64,000 bases of DNA from an uncultured Nitrospiraceae bacterium (lineage in GTDB: Bacteria > Nitrospirota > Thermodesulfovibrionia > Thermodesulfovibrionales > SM23-35). Below, piece after piece: positions 34,476 through 40,380 of the stretch. The notes under the pieces are model-generated. The model worked only from the letters and a program-made list of their open reading frames with translations. It did not search any database and had not been told where the DNA came from. Each line of letters opens with the position of its first letter. Position 1 is the first letter of the stretch. The position numbers were made by a program, and so were the translations under genes. Where the stretch lies: assembly GCA_963727775.1 (NCBI GenBank), contig CAVSHB010000001.1, positions 1,472,001-1,536,000 on the forward strand, given 5' to 3'.

Positions 34476-36689
34476 TCATTCTTTCTTTATCCCAAGCCTG
34501 ATATCAGCTGAATTAGTTTTGCGCTTTTTACCGATCATTATTCCCATACCATTTTCATCTTCCGCGTAAGCCTGTCCTTTGCTGCTATAAGTGAGTCGAT
34601 CATTATCCTTCAGGTTTATAAATATGCCTAAGCTCCCATCTGTGGCCGCACCTTGCACTAAGGTCCCTCCCCAAAACCGGTCATTGCCTCCGGCATCCTG
34701 GAAAAAACCGATACCGAAATCATGTCCCATGCCCTGCGCCACGCCGAATGAAGAATAATAAAAATCGTTGCCCTTCTGATCTATCAAAACCCCTACAGAG
34801 GAATGTATGCCGGCACCCTGAGCGTAGCGTCCTGAAATATACTGGTCGTTGCCGGCCATATCGTTTAAGATACCCAACCCATAGTAATAGGATGCACCCT
34901 GCGCAAAATAATCGGCAACGTAGATATCGTCTCCCTCTTCATCTATCAGCATCCCTATCCCCCCAGGCACACCGTTTATGCCCTTTTCTGGTCTCACTCC
35001 CTGCCCGAAACCCTGCCCCATGCTAATCGTAGACTTCGAGGGGTCACGGAAGTCCGGCACTACCCCGCCTAATTTGTAGAAATCGTTACCAGCTTCATCG
35101 ATTAGAATGCCGGCTCCGCCGAAAAGACCCAGTCCCTGTCCCTGATACGTGCAAAGATAGCAATTATCGCCTTTGCTATTTACGATTAGGCCGACACCCA
35201 TTTGTCCTACACCTTGGGAGAAGCTCCTTGCGGTATAAACTCCGTTCCCATCGCCATGGTAAAGGAATCCGATACCCCAAAAACCAACTCCCTGACTTGC
35301 ATCCAATGAAACAAACGTCGCATTACCTCCGAGATCAATCAAAAAGCCACCACCCAAAACTCCAGCTCCTTGGGAAAAATTCTCGTTGCTGATGTAACGA
35401 TTATTCCCTCCCCAATCAATTACCAAAGATACAGGCATTCCGGGTCGAGTTCCCCCCGCGTTATTGAGGTAGAGGTTATCACCGCCAAGGTCAAGAATCA
35501 AAGCTGCATCATCCCTGTATACATTAGGTCCGGGACCGCCTACGATAACCTTGCCTATGGGGGTCATAGACTCGTAGAGTATTTCCTTATTATTGCCGAA
35601 CCGATTAATGAGGTCATCTTTCAAATGCGACAGATTGTCCCGGGTAAAAAAGGAAAGAAGGGGAGAAAATGCGTTAAAGAGTTTTGCACGATCCACCTTC
35701 ATCGAAATATCGAGTATCCTATTCCACTGGCTGTCGTCCCATGGATTTAACGCCTTATTCCACAACAGCTCTTTCTCTTCCGGCGTTAAGTTGTTTAAGG
35801 CCTCTTCAACTTTATTTTTTGCTTCCTCCATTATCCGAAGTAATGCAGGAAAACTGGTTTCTGCCGGCCTTTCGGAAAGAGACAGCTCTATATCAAGGAG
35901 AGAGGCAATCTCTCGGACACTCTGCCCTATACGCCAGTCATTTTCATGGAAAGGAGTGATGACTCGCTGCGACAATTCGCCGGCAACTTCTCCCGCCGCC
36001 AGAGGATGCCTCATCATGTAGGTCAGTTCTTTCATCTGCAGCGGATGAGATTTCTTTTCATAAGCCAGACCCGGGTTATGCACGGCGTTTGACCTCTTAT
36101 ATAATTCATCAAGGACATTGTTAAATGCAGAAAGATCATTTTGATCACGCAGGGAATTTTCGAGCATCGAGGATGGGCCGGAGCATTTATCCATATTAGG
36201 GTGCTTGGCTTCCGGTTGTTCATGCGTCGGCCTCTCTTCCAGTACGGCGGTCATAGAAAGTTGTTGGTCGTTACGCAAAATACCCAGTGCGACCTGAGCC
36301 CCGATTTTTTGCTGCTCAATCATTTTTCTGAAAGACGTTAGGATGTGCTCAACATCACCGCAGGCAGGATTGCCGTTAATGGACAGGATGATATCCCCGT
36401 CTTTGAGACCCGTCTTTGCCGCCGCCGTTCCGTCTATAACTCCTGCAACCTGTATGAAAGTACTTTCCTTACACGCGTGAATAGATTGTTCTAATTTCTT
36501 GGAAGCCAAATAGATTCCAAGATAAGACTTACGTTCAATTGCGGGATAAGGTTTTGACGGCACATGGAGCAAGTCACAATATGAGAAGGGTCCTATCAAC
36601 GGAATGGAGTTTTGTTGCGATAAAAACTTCCCGCTACACGAAAAAGAAAATACAGTCAAGAAAACGCAGAGATACCATTTTCTCATCAT
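34476..36689 (-). CDS. Exported PDZ-domain protein with Gly-rich D-x-x-G-N-D-x-Y / S-Q-G repeats
   Basis: Signal/lipobox-like FSC, PDZ (GLKDGDIILSING), multiple IDxxGxDxY..QG repeats. Confidence 0.75.
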   Translation of the reverse strand: MMRKWYLCVFLTVFSFSCSGKFLSQQNSIPLIGPFSYCDLLHVPSKPYPAIERKSYLGIYLASKKLEQSIHACKESTFIQVAGVIDGTAAAKTGLKDGDIILSINGNPACGDVEHILTSFRKMIEQQKIGAQVALGILRNDQQLSMTAVLEERPTHEQPEAKHPNMDKCSGPSSMLENSLRDQNDLSAFNNVLDELYKRSNAVHNPGLAYEKKSHPLQMKELTYMMRHPLAAGEVAGELSQRVITPFHENDWRIGQSVREIASLLDIELSLSERPAETSFPALLRIMEEAKNKVEEALNNLTPEEKELLWNKALNPWDDSQWNRILDISMKVDRAKLFNAFSPLLSFFTRDNLSHLKDDLINRFGNNKEILYESMTPIGKVIVGGPGPNVYRDDAALILDLGGDNLYLNNAGGTRPGMPVSLVIDWGGNNRYISNENFSQGAGVLGGGFLIDLGGNATFVSLDASQGVGFWGIGFLYHGDGNGVYTARSFSQGVGQMGVGLIVNSKGDNCYLCTYQGQGLGLFGGAGILIDEAGNDFYKLGGVVPDFRDPSKSTISMGQGFGQGVRPEKGINGVPGGIGMLIDEEGDDIYVADYFAQGASYYYGLGILNDMAGNDQYISGRYAQGAGIHSSVGVLIDQKGNDFYYSSFGVAQGMGHDFGIGFFQDAGGNDRFWGGTLVQGAATDGSLGIFINLKDNDRLTYSSKGQAYAEDENGMGIMIGKKRKTNSADIRLGIKKE

Positions 36690-36836
36690 TTAATCCGTCT
36701 TCATATATTATATTTACAAAAGCTTTTGATCATGAGCAATAAAATACATTTTGTGCTAACGACCAGATAATGATACCAAAGATTTGAGGAAATAGGGTGA
36801 CACTCCAAGTTTAGGTTAACGAAAGGAGTGTCATAG

Positions 36837-38399
36837 ATGGAACCAGCAGAGGGTGTACAAAAGAGCAGTACAAAGAGGAAGTTTCCGAAGCGAAGCAATC
36901 GTTACGGGCCCGATTTCAAGCTTCAAATAGTCAAGAAGTACGTTGAGGAGAGCGTTCCCGTTCCGGTGATCCGGCAGGAATGCGGAGTGAGCAGTAATTC
37001 GGTAAGACGCTGGGTACGTGCCTATCGTCGTGAGGGCGAAGCCGGACTATCGATGAGGTACACCGGTAAGGGACGCAGCCTTCCCACTCCAGTGAAAGAG
37101 AAGATCGTCGAAATCAAAGAAGGCAACCCGCTTTTCGGTATCAAGCGCATTTCGCAACTATTAAAGAGAGTGTTTTTCCTTTCCGCCAGCCCTGAGACGG
37201 TCCGTAAGACACTGCATGAATCATCCCTCATGACGGCCCCACCCAAGAAGCGGCAGCGTAATATTACCCGTCCCCGGTTTTTCGAGCGATCAACACCGAA
37301 CCAGCTTTGGCAGACGGATATCTTTACGTTTCGACTTGGGGGCCGCTATGCGTTTCTGATCGGCTATATAGACGATTATTCCCGCTACATAACGGGGCTT
37401 GAGCTTTTCCGCAGCCAAACGGCGCAGAATGTTATAGAGGTATACCGTCGGGCGGCCTCCGAGTACAACCCGCCCAAAGAGATGCTTACGGATAATGGGC
37501 GGCAGTATACGAGCTGGCGCGGCAACAGCCGCTTCGAACTGGAGTTAAAGAAAGACAAAATCCACCACATCAAATCGCAGCCTCACCACCCGATGACATT
37601 AGGGAAGATAGAGCGATTCTGGAAGACGATTTTTCTGGAGTTCCTAAGCCGAGCCCAGTTCGGTAGCTTTGAAGATGCGGTTGAGCGGATACGTCAGTGG
37701 GTGAAGTATTACAACCATAAAAGGCCGCATCAGGGTATCGGCGGCTTGTGTCCCGCAGACCGGTATTTTGAGATCCAGAGCGAGCTTAGAAAGACCATCG
37801 AGCAGGGCATCCAGGACAACCTCCTTGAGATGGCGCTAAGGGGCAAGCCGCGCCTGCCGTTTTACATGGTGGGCCGGATGGAGGGGCAGTCGGTGGTGCT
37901 GCGTGCGGAAAAGGGCAGGCTGAGGTTGTCGGTTGACGCCGAAAACGACGACATTACGCAGGAAGTAGTTTACAATCTAAATGAGAAAGGACATGACAAT
38001 GGAGAAGACGGAGAAGATAAAGAGCGAGAAGAAGCGGCAGCCGATGAACTACGGGGCAATGGAAAAGTGCAAGGCGGTACTGTCTGTATGGACGGAGAGG
38101 CGCAGACCGGCGGAGATATGCCGGGAGCTGTCGATCCCCTGGATGGCGCTTGCGCACTGGCAGAGGCGGGCGATGGAGGGGATGCTCCAGGCGCTGGAGC
38201 CGAGGGTGAGCCTGGACAGGGGGCCAGCGCTTTCTCCCCGCTTGCAGGCGTTGCTGGAGAAGAAGCGTCTGACGCTCTTGACGAGCACAGTGCAGGGCAG
38301 ACTGGAAAGGACGCTATCAAAGGCACAGGAAGCAAGGAAAGCGGAGACGCCTCAGTCGAAGGAGATAAAACCCTCCGGCGAAGCCTTGCGGAAAACTGA
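36837..38399 (+). CDS. IS481-family DDE transposase with acidic low-complexity tail
   Basis: HTH, PNQLWQTD, IDDYSRY, LTDNGRQY, GKIERFWKT, YNHKRPHQG. Confidence 0.93.
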   Translation: MEPAEGVQKSSTKRKFPKRSNRYGPDFKLQIVKKYVEESVPVPVIRQECGVSSNSVRRWVRAYRREGEAGLSMRYTGKGRSLPTPVKEKIVEIKEGNPLFGIKRISQLLKRVFFLSASPETVRKTLHESSLMTAPPKKRQRNITRPRFFERSTPNQLWQTDIFTFRLGGRYAFLIGYIDDYSRYITGLELFRSQTAQNVIEVYRRAASEYNPPKEMLTDNGRQYTSWRGNSRFELELKKDKIHHIKSQPHHPMTLGKIERFWKTIFLEFLSRAQFGSFEDAVERIRQWVKYYNHKRPHQGIGGLCPADRYFEIQSELRKTIEQGIQDNLLEMALRGKPRLPFYMVGRMEGQSVVLRAEKGRLRLSVDAENDDITQEVVYNLNEKGHDNGEDGEDKEREEAAADELRGNGKVQGGTVCMDGEAQTGGDMPGAVDPLDGACALAEAGDGGDAPGAGAEGEPGQGASAFSPLAGVAGEEASDALDEHSAGQTGKDAIKGTGSKESGDASVEGDKTLRRSLAEN

Positions 38400-38409
38400 G
38401 AAACCGTAG
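37999..38409 (+). CDS. HTH protein overlapping the transposase tail in another frame
   Basis: AAGGA RBS; KAVLSVWTERRRPAEICRELSIPWMALAHWQRRA resembles ORF 38554. Confidence 0.7.
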   Translation: MEKTEKIKSEKKRQPMNYGAMEKCKAVLSVWTERRRPAEICRELSIPWMALAHWQRRAMEGMLQALEPRVSLDRGPALSPRLQALLEKKRLTLLTSTVQGRLERTLSKAQEARKAETPQSKEIKPSGEALRKTEKP

Positions 38410-38553
38410 CGTAGAGACATCCTAATAATGGGGCAAGGCAGAAAACGGGTGATGGTTAAATATGGACCGAGTTGAGAAAATCGATTGTAGGGCTTCTGAG
38501 GAAGGCGATTTTCTCTCAATCCGAAGATTTTTAGTTGTTAAAGGGAGTGTGCT

Positions 38554-38940
38554 ATGAGCGACTCAAAGGATAAGGAGCGTGCCCGCCAAAGAGCAGCGGT
38601 GGTGTTTGCCGTGCGCAGCGGCCAGATAACAGCCGAGGAGGGTGCGCGCCGACTGGGCGTGTCCCGCAAGACCTACTACGAATGGGAAAGCCGGGCATTA
38701 CAGGCGATGACAGAAGCCATGGAAAACAAATCTGCCGGCAGACCGAACATGCCGCAGGACGAGGAGAAGCAGCGTTTACAGGAGGAGGTTACCGAACTCC
38801 GGAAGAAGTTGTTTGTCGCTGAAAAGACGGTAGAAGTGCGGGATATGTTGCATGCGTATGAGTTGCAGAATGCCGGTGATAAGAAAAGCGTCCCGACAAA
38901 TCGGGAGGAAAAAAAACGAAAGCAAAGGAAGAAACGATAA
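38554..38940 (+). CDS. OrfA-like HTH/coiled-coil protein
   Basis: TAEEGARRLGVSRKTYYEWE HTH, coiled coil, ends near the A8 slippery run 38909-38916. Confidence 0.85.
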   Translation: MSDSKDKERARQRAAVVFAVRSGQITAEEGARRLGVSRKTYYEWESRALQAMTEAMENKSAGRPNMPQDEEKQRLQEEVTELRKKLFVAEKTVEVRDMLHAYELQNAGDKKSVPTNREEKKRKQRKKR

Positions 38941-38945
38941 CTCGT

Positions 38946-39989
38946 ATGCTTGCCATGATTGACCAGATCAGGGAGAGGACCGGGATGCCCTACAGAGCGA
39001 TCTGCTATGCCGTAAGACTGCCCTACCCGAGTTTTATGCGGTGGCGCATACGGCGCAAAAAAGATACGCCCTTGGTGCGGCAACCTGGTCCTCCCAAGGT
39101 CAAGCCACCGGATTTTGGCAAGATTGAGCAGGATATAGCACAGTTATCTCACGGGCACAATCGCACGCAGGGAACCGGGGCGTTATATGTTCGCTACGGA
39201 TCCACCGTATCAAGGCGGAAGCTGCATACAATGGTAGCAATGGCGCGGCACGATCTCAATACCTACCATCGTCAGAATCTGCGGCGCATCCGCTGGAACG
39301 TGCCGAACGTCGCCTGGTCCATGGACCCCTGCGAATACGAACAGCGTGACGCAACTGGTGCAAAGGTATACCTGAACCAGATGCAAGATCTCGCGTCACG
39401 CTATAAGTTTAATCCCATGACGGGAGAAGTTCCCTGCGGCGAAGAGATATCCGGCTATCTTGCGGCAACCTTCAATCGGTTTGGAGCACCCCTGTTCCTA
39501 AAACGGGACAATGGAGGTAACCTCAATCATGCAGCTGTCAATGACGTGCTTGCCGATTATTTTGTCCTACCGGTGAATAGCCCGGTCCATTATCCGCCTT
39601 ATAACGGTGCGATCGAAGAGGCGCAAACCGAGCTGAAAAATGGGCTTGCCGCTAAGCTCTCGTACAGGCCCTTTTGCCCACGAGAACACATAGAGGCATA
39701 CGCCTCGACGGTTGAGCATGATCTTAATCACCAACCTCGTCCGTGCTTGAACGGTAACAACGCCTGCAGGGTGTACTTCATCGGAAAAAGAGCTTTTTCC
39801 AAATGGGAAAGGAGGGATGCCTATGTTTGGATAACGACCTTGCAGAGTGATATACTTTGCAGTGAAGGGGTTCAGCCCCAGGCGGCTTGGCGCATCGCCG
39901 TGGAGGCATGGCTGAACATGAAAGGCTTTATTACGATTACGATTAATGGAAAAGTGTTACCCAATTTTTTCTCATTTCGGTATCATTAA
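38946..39989 (+). CDS. OrfB-like integrase-core (DDE) transposase
   Basis: PNVAWSMD, QDLASRY, KRDNGG, YNGAIEE; -1 frame relative to 38554 and open from the A8 run. Confidence 0.85.
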   Translation: MLAMIDQIRERTGMPYRAICYAVRLPYPSFMRWRIRRKKDTPLVRQPGPPKVKPPDFGKIEQDIAQLSHGHNRTQGTGALYVRYGSTVSRRKLHTMVAMARHDLNTYHRQNLRRIRWNVPNVAWSMDPCEYEQRDATGAKVYLNQMQDLASRYKFNPMTGEVPCGEEISGYLAATFNRFGAPLFLKRDNGGNLNHAAVNDVLADYFVLPVNSPVHYPPYNGAIEEAQTELKNGLAAKLSYRPFCPREHIEAYASTVEHDLNHQPRPCLNGNNACRVYFIGKRAFSKWERRDAYVWITTLQSDILCSEGVQPQAAWRIAVEAWLNMKGFITITINGKVLPNFFSFRYH

Positions 39990-40129
39990 CTCTTGGCGTG
40001 CACAGCGGTGTGGAACCGATAAAAACGAGTGAAATTCTACCTACTTTGCAGGAGGAGGTTTTCGTTATGGTAATACCGCGTTTGATGAAAGTGAACGCTT
40101 TATATAGAATATAACAAGGAGGCTGCCAT

Positions 40130-40327
40130 ATGGGAACATCAATAAAAGATTTGAGCGTTGAGGAATTACAAACGCTTATATCAAATACTGTCAGAGAAAC
40201 GATGGAAGATGTGATCGAAGATATGCTCGCGCTTTCGAGTGAAAATTTTCTACTTTCGATAGAACAGTCAAGAAAAGATTACAAAGAAGGCAGAATAAAA
40301 TCATTCGAAGAAGTCTTTAATGTTTAA
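40130..40327 (+). CDS. Putative antitoxin
   Basis: RBS AAGGAGG; C-terminus IEQSRKDYKEGRIKSFEEVF typical of RelB/Phd-like antitoxins. Confidence 0.65.
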   Translation: MGTSIKDLSVEELQTLISNTVRETMEDVIEDMLALSSENFLLSIEQSRKDYKEGRIKSFEEVFNV

Positions 40328-40380
40328 GATCGTCATAACTGACAGGCATTAAAAGACATTTGAAGATCCTGCAGATATAA
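40320..40380 (+). pseudogene. RelE/ParE toxin remnant
   Basis: ATG overlapping the antitoxin end: MFKIVITDR then stop; +1 nt would give RALKDI; no continuation. Confidence 0.45.

Follow-up and report, generated by a model that had tools for sequence, protein, structure and literature searches.

An insertion sequence family with two DDE transposase genes inside one pair of ends and no target-site duplication

The window analysed here is a stretch of 64,000 nucleotides from the genome of an uncultured Nitrospiraceae bacterium (assembly GCA_963727775.1, contig CAVSHB010000001.1, positions 1,472,001 to 1,536,000), and its positions 36752–40004 form a single insertion sequence (IS) of 3,253 bp on the forward strand, in which one pair of imperfect inverted ends encloses four same-strand open reading frames (ORFs), designated A, B, C and D. 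Both A and D code for transposases with a DDE (Asp-Asp-Glu) catalytic triad, and we hold with high confidence that this is one IS carrying two maintained DDE genes. DDE insertion sequences are generally taken to have one catalytic transposase, join both ends in concert and leave a short duplication; this family retains two catalytic enzymes across several phyla, leaves no duplication, and has flanks that look swapped or lost. Its most unusual property concerns the flanks, which do not add up to a single interrupted target in any copy with a checkable cut gene. We favor an interpretation, with a probability of about 0.5, in which the two enzymes are divided by step and the ends are joined singly at separate sites, replacing the DNA between them.

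The left end (IRL, 36752–36804, forward strand; 22-element consensus TGTCCTA..aCCAG..ATGA ... GGGTgACACT) and the right end (IRR, 39953–40004, reverse strand; family consensus TGTgC ... TtATGa ... GGGTaACACTT) both start with TGTG, are identical at 38 of 53 aligned positions, and are the longest inverted pair found; the TAA stop codon of gene D (39987–39989) falls inside IRR. The host genome contains four copies of the element, each of exactly 3,253 bp, differing by 0–1 single-nucleotide polymorphism (SNP) and with unrelated flanks, which places the boundaries beyond chance; the element is real and recently mobile as one unit. Neither a lone module nor a lone end is present in the host genome, the window copy contains no internal site resembling an end, and an end-profile scan of 61 elements detected no internal ends except for a weak match (E 0.64) that immediately follows the left end of locus L073. 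The initial annotation had described one ~53-bp end pair around four ORFs, with no internal repeats, duplication or nested IS, all of which is borne out; its term 'composite transposon' is not retained, as there are no two IS flanking a cargo but one end pair and zero internal ends.

The four genes and their conservation

The genes were compared in 65 complete elements, reduced to 61 by removal of near-duplicates, all with four intact ORFs. Gene A (36837–38399, forward; 520 amino acids) has a Shine-Dalgarno (SD) sequence ahead of its ATG in the window copy, and its core (36837–37980) codes for an IS481-type DDE transposase with two helix-turn-helix (HTH) regions and an integrase core, matching Pfam rve, rve_3 and HTH families. 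IS481 is the best NCBIfam family for the window protein, which scores 215.6–216.7 bits against a cut-off of 224; the family is matched by 60 of 60 aligned members. The catalytic triad (D161, D219, E259) is invariant in all 61 elements.

Gene D (38883–39989, forward, with the first ATG at 38946; 347 amino acids from that ATG) codes for the second DDE transposase, which is IS3 OrfB-like; its triad residues D127, D188 and E224 are kept in 60, 61 and 61 of the 61 elements, the sole miss being an N base. The protein has no Pfam match and is mostly annotated as hypothetical, with weak matches to the NCBIfam IS3 and IS481 models (40.4 bits for IS481). With an IS3 cut-off of 160, D scores 35.7 bits and C 28 bits when scored separately and not as a fusion. 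D models confidently as an integrase-like fold (AlphaFold2 predicted local distance difference test, pLDDT, of 87.9), with retroviral integrases, IstA and TnsB as top Foldseek matches; the model of A was poor (pLDDT 57) and was left unused, and a complex prediction for the A core with D (score 0.00) counts neither for nor against an interaction. The two transposases had been called unrelated, which goes too far: they are very distant homologues, with 18% identity over 272 profile columns and an hhalign probability of 46.6%.

Between the two transposase regions lie two HTH genes. Gene B (37981–38409, forward; 142 amino acids) codes for an HTH and coiled-coil-like protein and lies in the +1 frame within the last ~140 codons of A, with a probable start at 37993 preceded by an SD sequence in the window copy. 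Gene C (38554–38940, forward; 128 amino acids) codes for an IS3 OrfA-like HTH protein that matches Pfam HTH_28 and HTH_Tnp_1 and aligns to positions 2–82 of the IS3 model. B and C, earlier described as similar, are paralogues (hhalign probability 96%). A sigma-70-like promoter match (9/12) at 37948–37976, inside A and just 5' of B, could drive B, C and D separately; the region has six such matches versus 3.3 expected, near chance.

All four genes are under purifying selection, as judged from ratios of nonsynonymous to synonymous substitution rates (dN/dS) in 18 independent pairs: 0.13 for the A core, 0.24 for B, 0.22 for C and 0.20 for D. This was the comparison proposed in the initial annotation for the two DDE genes, neither of which is degenerate.

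The overprinting of an HTH gene on A, also proposed earlier, is a constant feature, with B in the +1 phase relative to A in all 61 elements. The A tail (37981–38399, forward), which occupies the -1 frame relative to gene B, is a ~140-residue acidic, Gly/Ala-rich extension with a dN/dS of 1.7 and no residue-level constraint. Synonymous shuffling predicts 229 stops in the frame of A across B, where none occurs and the frame is open in 61 of 61 elements; in the same stop test, control segments taken from D and A gave 225 of 270 and 184 of 286. The 61 elements share ancestry and are hence not 61 independent trials, and synonymous divergence in B is still 0.53 among the closest pairs. The frame of A is open across C too in 21 elements. 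Either a disordered A tail or the passage of ribosomes over B and C has a role, and the tail over B is a clear bacterial example of a long overlap held open by selection without residue conservation.

The overlap of C and D contains a run of seven to nine A residues in 61 of 61 elements, A8 runs being nearly absent elsewhere; in the window copy it is an A8 (38909–38916, forward), the sole run of seven or more, which would link C to the D frame. This is the sequence signature of the orfA/orfB frameshift of IS3 elements, in keeping with the frameshifted IS3-like pair recognized earlier. D is in the -1 phase relative to C in 50 elements and in the +1 phase in 11. The run would have to work in both phases, which fits transcriptional slippage as described for IS1447, where slippage occurs in both directions on 7–9 A (PMC6211511). 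SD-like sites precede A, B and C in the window copy and the D ATG is without one close by, so the main product of D is probably a C-D fusion, which slippage on the A run would yield with a length of ~478 amino acids. The C stop and D start have an ATGA-type overlap in 22 of the 61 elements, and no conserved hairpin is evident 3' of the A run in 8 folded elements.

Junctions and flanks

No target-site duplication (TSD) accompanies any of the four host-genome copies. Among 73 complete copies of the family that have both flanks, direct repeats of 0, 1, 2 and 3 bp occur in 55, 12, 4 and 2, compared with 53.4, 12.1, 5.8 and 1.3 in shuffled pairs; the 2–3 bp matches are thus at chance level and none of the 73 has a TSD of at least 4 bp. 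Offset and inverted flank repeats are likewise at chance level in these copies, and neither the 2–15 bp TSD of IS481 elements nor the 3–4 bp TSD of IS3 elements is seen. Two other IS in the host genome retain their duplications, one of 6 bp in 10 of 11 copies (one being 4 bp) and the other of 8 bp in 6 of 6, so the missing TSD is not an assembly effect. The host genome is IS-rich, with more than 10 multi-copy families of 0.6–1.9 kb, some nested within others.

The ends are precisely joined, both at ACA, and 199 distinct junctions (96 left, 103 right) share a target bias. T is seldom the base adjoining ACA (13 of 199), A or T is found at position 4 in 144, and 96 have T at position 5; 101 of the 199 junctions fit the motif where 41 are expected. 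The bias is alike at left and right junctions (homogeneity p 0.26–0.77, positions 1–5), and this shared fixed-position bias indicates that the junctions are transposase-made, by the same kind of reaction at both ends. It is non-palindromic for every stagger from 2 to 12 bp, so the two joins are unlike halves of one staggered cut.

Three of the four host copies are flanked by cut genes of unlike kinds. One lies between a cut PAS-type gene and a cut gene of another kind; a second between 396 bp from the start of a three-integrase element and a cut oxidoreductase-like gene; and a third between 1,569 bp of the three-integrase element and an IS110-like element of which the final 150 bp remain. These are what we take the flanking genes to be from their translations (PAS-type, three-integrase or RIT-like, oxidoreductase-like and IS110-like). 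Judged by those intact relatives that occur elsewhere in the host genome, the missing parts, among them 2.7 kb of the three-integrase element and all but 150 bp of the IS110-like element, are absent at the opposite flank and beside the other copies. The left flank of the window copy is intergenic and uninformative on continuity.

Of 82 complete elements, 34 have both flanks of at least 200 nt and a frame of at least 120 codons at a junction, and none of the 34 has a continuation across the element that is visible by eye. At L019 the remainder of a cut TniB gene is not found in that genome, at L043 a cut methyltransferase gene has no C-terminus on either candidate flank, and at L102 the two long flanking frames belong to different proteins. 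No split TSDs were found between copies of one genome, and a tblastx search of flanks against the host genome gave no credible left/right pairing. A 6-bp cross match between L043 and L041 was discarded as a split target, the true methyltransferase C-terminus being absent there, and the TniB-like flanks of L017 and L019 are different genes, not one. Synteny with the one relative carrying the left-flank gene is too broken to size a deletion, and there is no empty site in four contig sets. The flanks of L017, L019, L025, L043, L047, L079, L131 and L149 contain many mobile and defence genes (TniB-like ATPases, IS4, IS110, a recombinase, a methyltransferase, DruA), which is what one would expect if deletions are tolerated only in dispensable DNA.

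On contig 4 of the host genome, the left ends of two copies adjoin opposite halves of the three-integrase element (C4:51986-52380 and C4:175513-177079); an intact copy is at C3:341995-345152, and 1.2 kb of its middle is at neither fragment. An attempt to link the two fragments to one ancestral site failed, a joint event and two hits being indistinguishable. Beside the window copy, a leftwards-transcribed gene (34476–36689) codes for a 737-residue PDZ-domain protein whose C-terminal half is repetitive and Gly/Asp-rich, and which is found in 1 of 56 other genomes of the family; in the right flank (40005–40330), a short open stretch is interrupted by the junction, and a 65-residue ORF (40130–40327) with a weak DUF760 match resembles an antitoxin with a broken partner.

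Proposed transposition and its alternatives

We propose that the element is one autonomous IS of the IS3/IS481 DDE group needing two transposases. C and D would give an OrfA protein plus low levels of the C-D fusion through slippage on the A run, with A made separately, and B and C may be end-binding cofactors or regulators. The two enzymes would share the work by step rather than by end: the IS3-like C-D fusion most likely processes the donor ends, in the manner of IS911-type copy-out, and one enzyme, probably the more conserved A, would join the ends to the target. Each end would be joined in a separate one-ended reaction, at sites often kilobases apart, with the new copy replacing the DNA between the two joining sites; copies would then survive mostly beside dispensable DNA. 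More tentatively, and somewhat less likely than not, this two-DDE IS would use a new transposition chemistry with target replacement as its regular outcome: a step-divided pair would deliver the ends singly to distant sites, each jump would delete host DNA, and the acidic tail overlying the HTH gene would serve as an internal brake or scaffold.

Several points weigh against division by step with one-ended joining. Selection shows, from sequence divergence, that both DDE genes matter, yet it is not proof that both act in every event, and the assignment of enzymes to steps is inferred. The continuity of the 34 elements was judged by eye for most and by Pfam labels for some; L116 was left out of the follow-up, and the flank frame of L039 has no homologue in 63 other genomes. 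No same-strain empty-site allele was found, so deletion at insertion is not separable from later deletion. Neither a circle nor an abutted-end junction turned up among the collected loci or the four contig sets, which are assembled contigs and not raw reads. Finally, L225 (1466–4389) has both ends and intact A, C and D with no B gene, and the sister clade described below has one HTH gene, so B is not essential everywhere.

Two alternatives also account for the pair of enzymes. The more serious, though we consider it less probable than even odds by some way, is that both transposases are needed for ordinary concerted insertion with a short TSD, and that very frequent adjacent deletion soon strips one flank. 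Adjacent deletion is known in the IS3 family, having accompanied IS events in the Lenski lines in 14 of 83 cases, each of them involving IS150 (PMC11708052), and being reported for IS3 as well (PMC8860574); one-sided truncated copies are also common in the two-DDE family. The other 69 events in the Lenski lines kept their TSDs, however (PMC11708052), whereas none of the 73 copies here has one of at least 4 bp, and the four host copies already lack a TSD while differing by no more than one SNP. No split TSDs were found either, the single 6-bp cross match not being a true split target. A concerted symmetric enzyme should give a palindromic bias, which is rejected for staggers of 2–12. Alternatively, as the initial annotation supposed with its end-specific pair, the enzymes could form an end-specific heteromer in which A cuts and joins one end and the C-D fusion the other, each with its own target site. 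The outer 4–16 bases of the left and right ends are consistently unlike while the inner motifs are common (22 elements), and independent enzymes would also uncouple the flanks; but enzymes that are 18% identical should prefer unlike targets, and the 96 left and 103 right junctions are indistinguishable (p 0.26–0.77), which weakens this proposal and makes it improbable.

Two further explanations fare worse. It is very improbable that rearrangements simply place the element in breaks already present in the DNA, with no target cut and no TSD. Such insertion has been proposed for single events, including one IS481-family element and some IS5 (PMC11708052), and fits an absent TSD plus deletions, but the fixed-position bias by both ends (101 of 199 junctions) points to sites chosen by a transposase, and the second enzyme is left unexplained. 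An old nested insertion of one IS within another, with one DDE gene now a passenger, has been largely refuted for the element in its present form and is the account to which we give least weight. A merger is its probable origin, some conflict exists between the A and D trees, and the distant relative L213 has an HTH and D-like pair with no A within 530 bases upstream; against these stand the lack of internal ends, the retention of both triads with dN/dS of 0.13 and 0.20, the persistence of the layout in remote relatives, and the frame of A woven through B.

Distribution and relation to known systems

The family is active and widespread in several phyla, and is apparently unnamed. D comprises 2,068 clusters at 90% identity, with 408 representatives at E<1e-30 among 50% clusters; the closest relatives (74–92% identity) are from Nitrospirota or its lower ranks, and remoter ones from Desulfobacterales, PVC and other groups. 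Among genomes of the host phylum, 7 of 301 have a D match, as do 16 of 401 genomes of another phylum; none was found in viral contigs or plasmids, and a search of plasmids with A gave one 34% IS481 match. Annotation overlooks this family, D being mostly hypothetical and without a Pfam match despite its abundance.

Co-occurrence of the four ORFs, the check suggested in the initial annotation, holds from either side. Among 80 metagenome loci anchored on A (62–94% identity in A), 59 have room for the remaining genes, and D is present with B and C in between at 58; the exception, L153, is cut just past the A core. Of 78 genome loci anchored on D, 62 have at least 1.5 kb upstream (13 are too short and 3 have only the tip of D), and A, B and C are present at 55. 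The seven misses are five loci with D cut at the 5' side, L081 without an A core, and L064. The 18 partial loci inspected are one-sided truncations or internal deletions, none being a module with its own end pair, and so neither module is seen moving alone within the family. L071 has three HTH genes between A and D, and two copies at L063/L064, with right ends facing ~3.4 kb apart, enclose another DDE-like gene in a possible composite structure.

The A and D trees broadly agree (rho 0.70), with 17 shared supported splits and 7 of 35 A splits in conflict. The layout persists in elements with as little as ~32% identity in D. It is also retained in a deeper sister clade (L222–L224), where gene A, with an acidic tail over a single HTH gene, precedes an A7–A9 run and a gene resembling D; L223 spans 2.7 kb and is bounded by ends of the same type. 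This pattern suggests that an IS3-like pair may have merged with an IS481-type gene and that the HTH gene was then duplicated.

A literature search at the level of abstracts found no description of this layout, ISfinder, most subscription journals and bioRxiv supplements not being covered. The reaction outcome is possibly new, while the parts are of the IS3 and IS481 kind already known. For the questions of how a single transposon is shared by two RNase H-fold enzymes and whether transposition can regularly result in deletion, the family provides a small system that is open to test.

IS481 elements are defined by a single transposase ORF. The present family resembles them in its terminal TGT...ACA with inverted repeats, TGT termini being those of IS481-type elements (PMC10045372), and in A, an IS481-type HTH and DDE protein. 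All 61 intact elements, however, have four conserved ORFs, of which two code for DDE triads; the three additional genes include a second DDE enzyme, the length is ~3 kb, and there is no TSD, where IS481 elements have TSDs of 2–15 bp, mostly 6 bp (PMC10045372). In the ISfinder IS481 set of 2022 in the supplement to that paper, the A and D motifs matched only the generic GKIERFW, although alignment gaps or a truncated file could hide a match (PMC10045372).

Resemblance to the IS3 family (IS3, IS911, IS150 and the IS1447 subgroup) lies in C and D, which are like OrfA and OrfB in the HTH gene, the A run at the overlap and the D(35)E spacing. IS3 elements have one DDE enzyme, a 3–4 bp TSD, and copy-out transposition through a figure-eight and a circle with abutted ends. 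Here there are two DDE enzymes per element, D is far under the IS3 cut-off, an IS481-type enzyme and a second HTH gene lie inside the same ends, and there is no 3–4 bp TSD. The two-way slippage of IS1447 is a precedent for the -1 and +1 phases (PMC6211511).

Elements of the Tn7/Tn5053 type and IS21 also have several transposition proteins and TG(T) ends, and the modelled fold of D resembles IstA and TnsB. They pair one DDE enzyme with an ATPase, to which Tn7 adds a non-DDE nuclease; here, in contrast, there are two DDE enzymes and no ATPase. The IS moves tied to deletions and duplications reported by Ngan et al. (PMC11708052) are alike in having an IS copy at a rearrangement junction with no TSD, but in that account this is a minority outcome of ordinary IS, whereas every copy examined here is in that state. 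The family is thus built of IS481 and IS3 parts, yet with two DDE genes and no TSD it falls outside both families.

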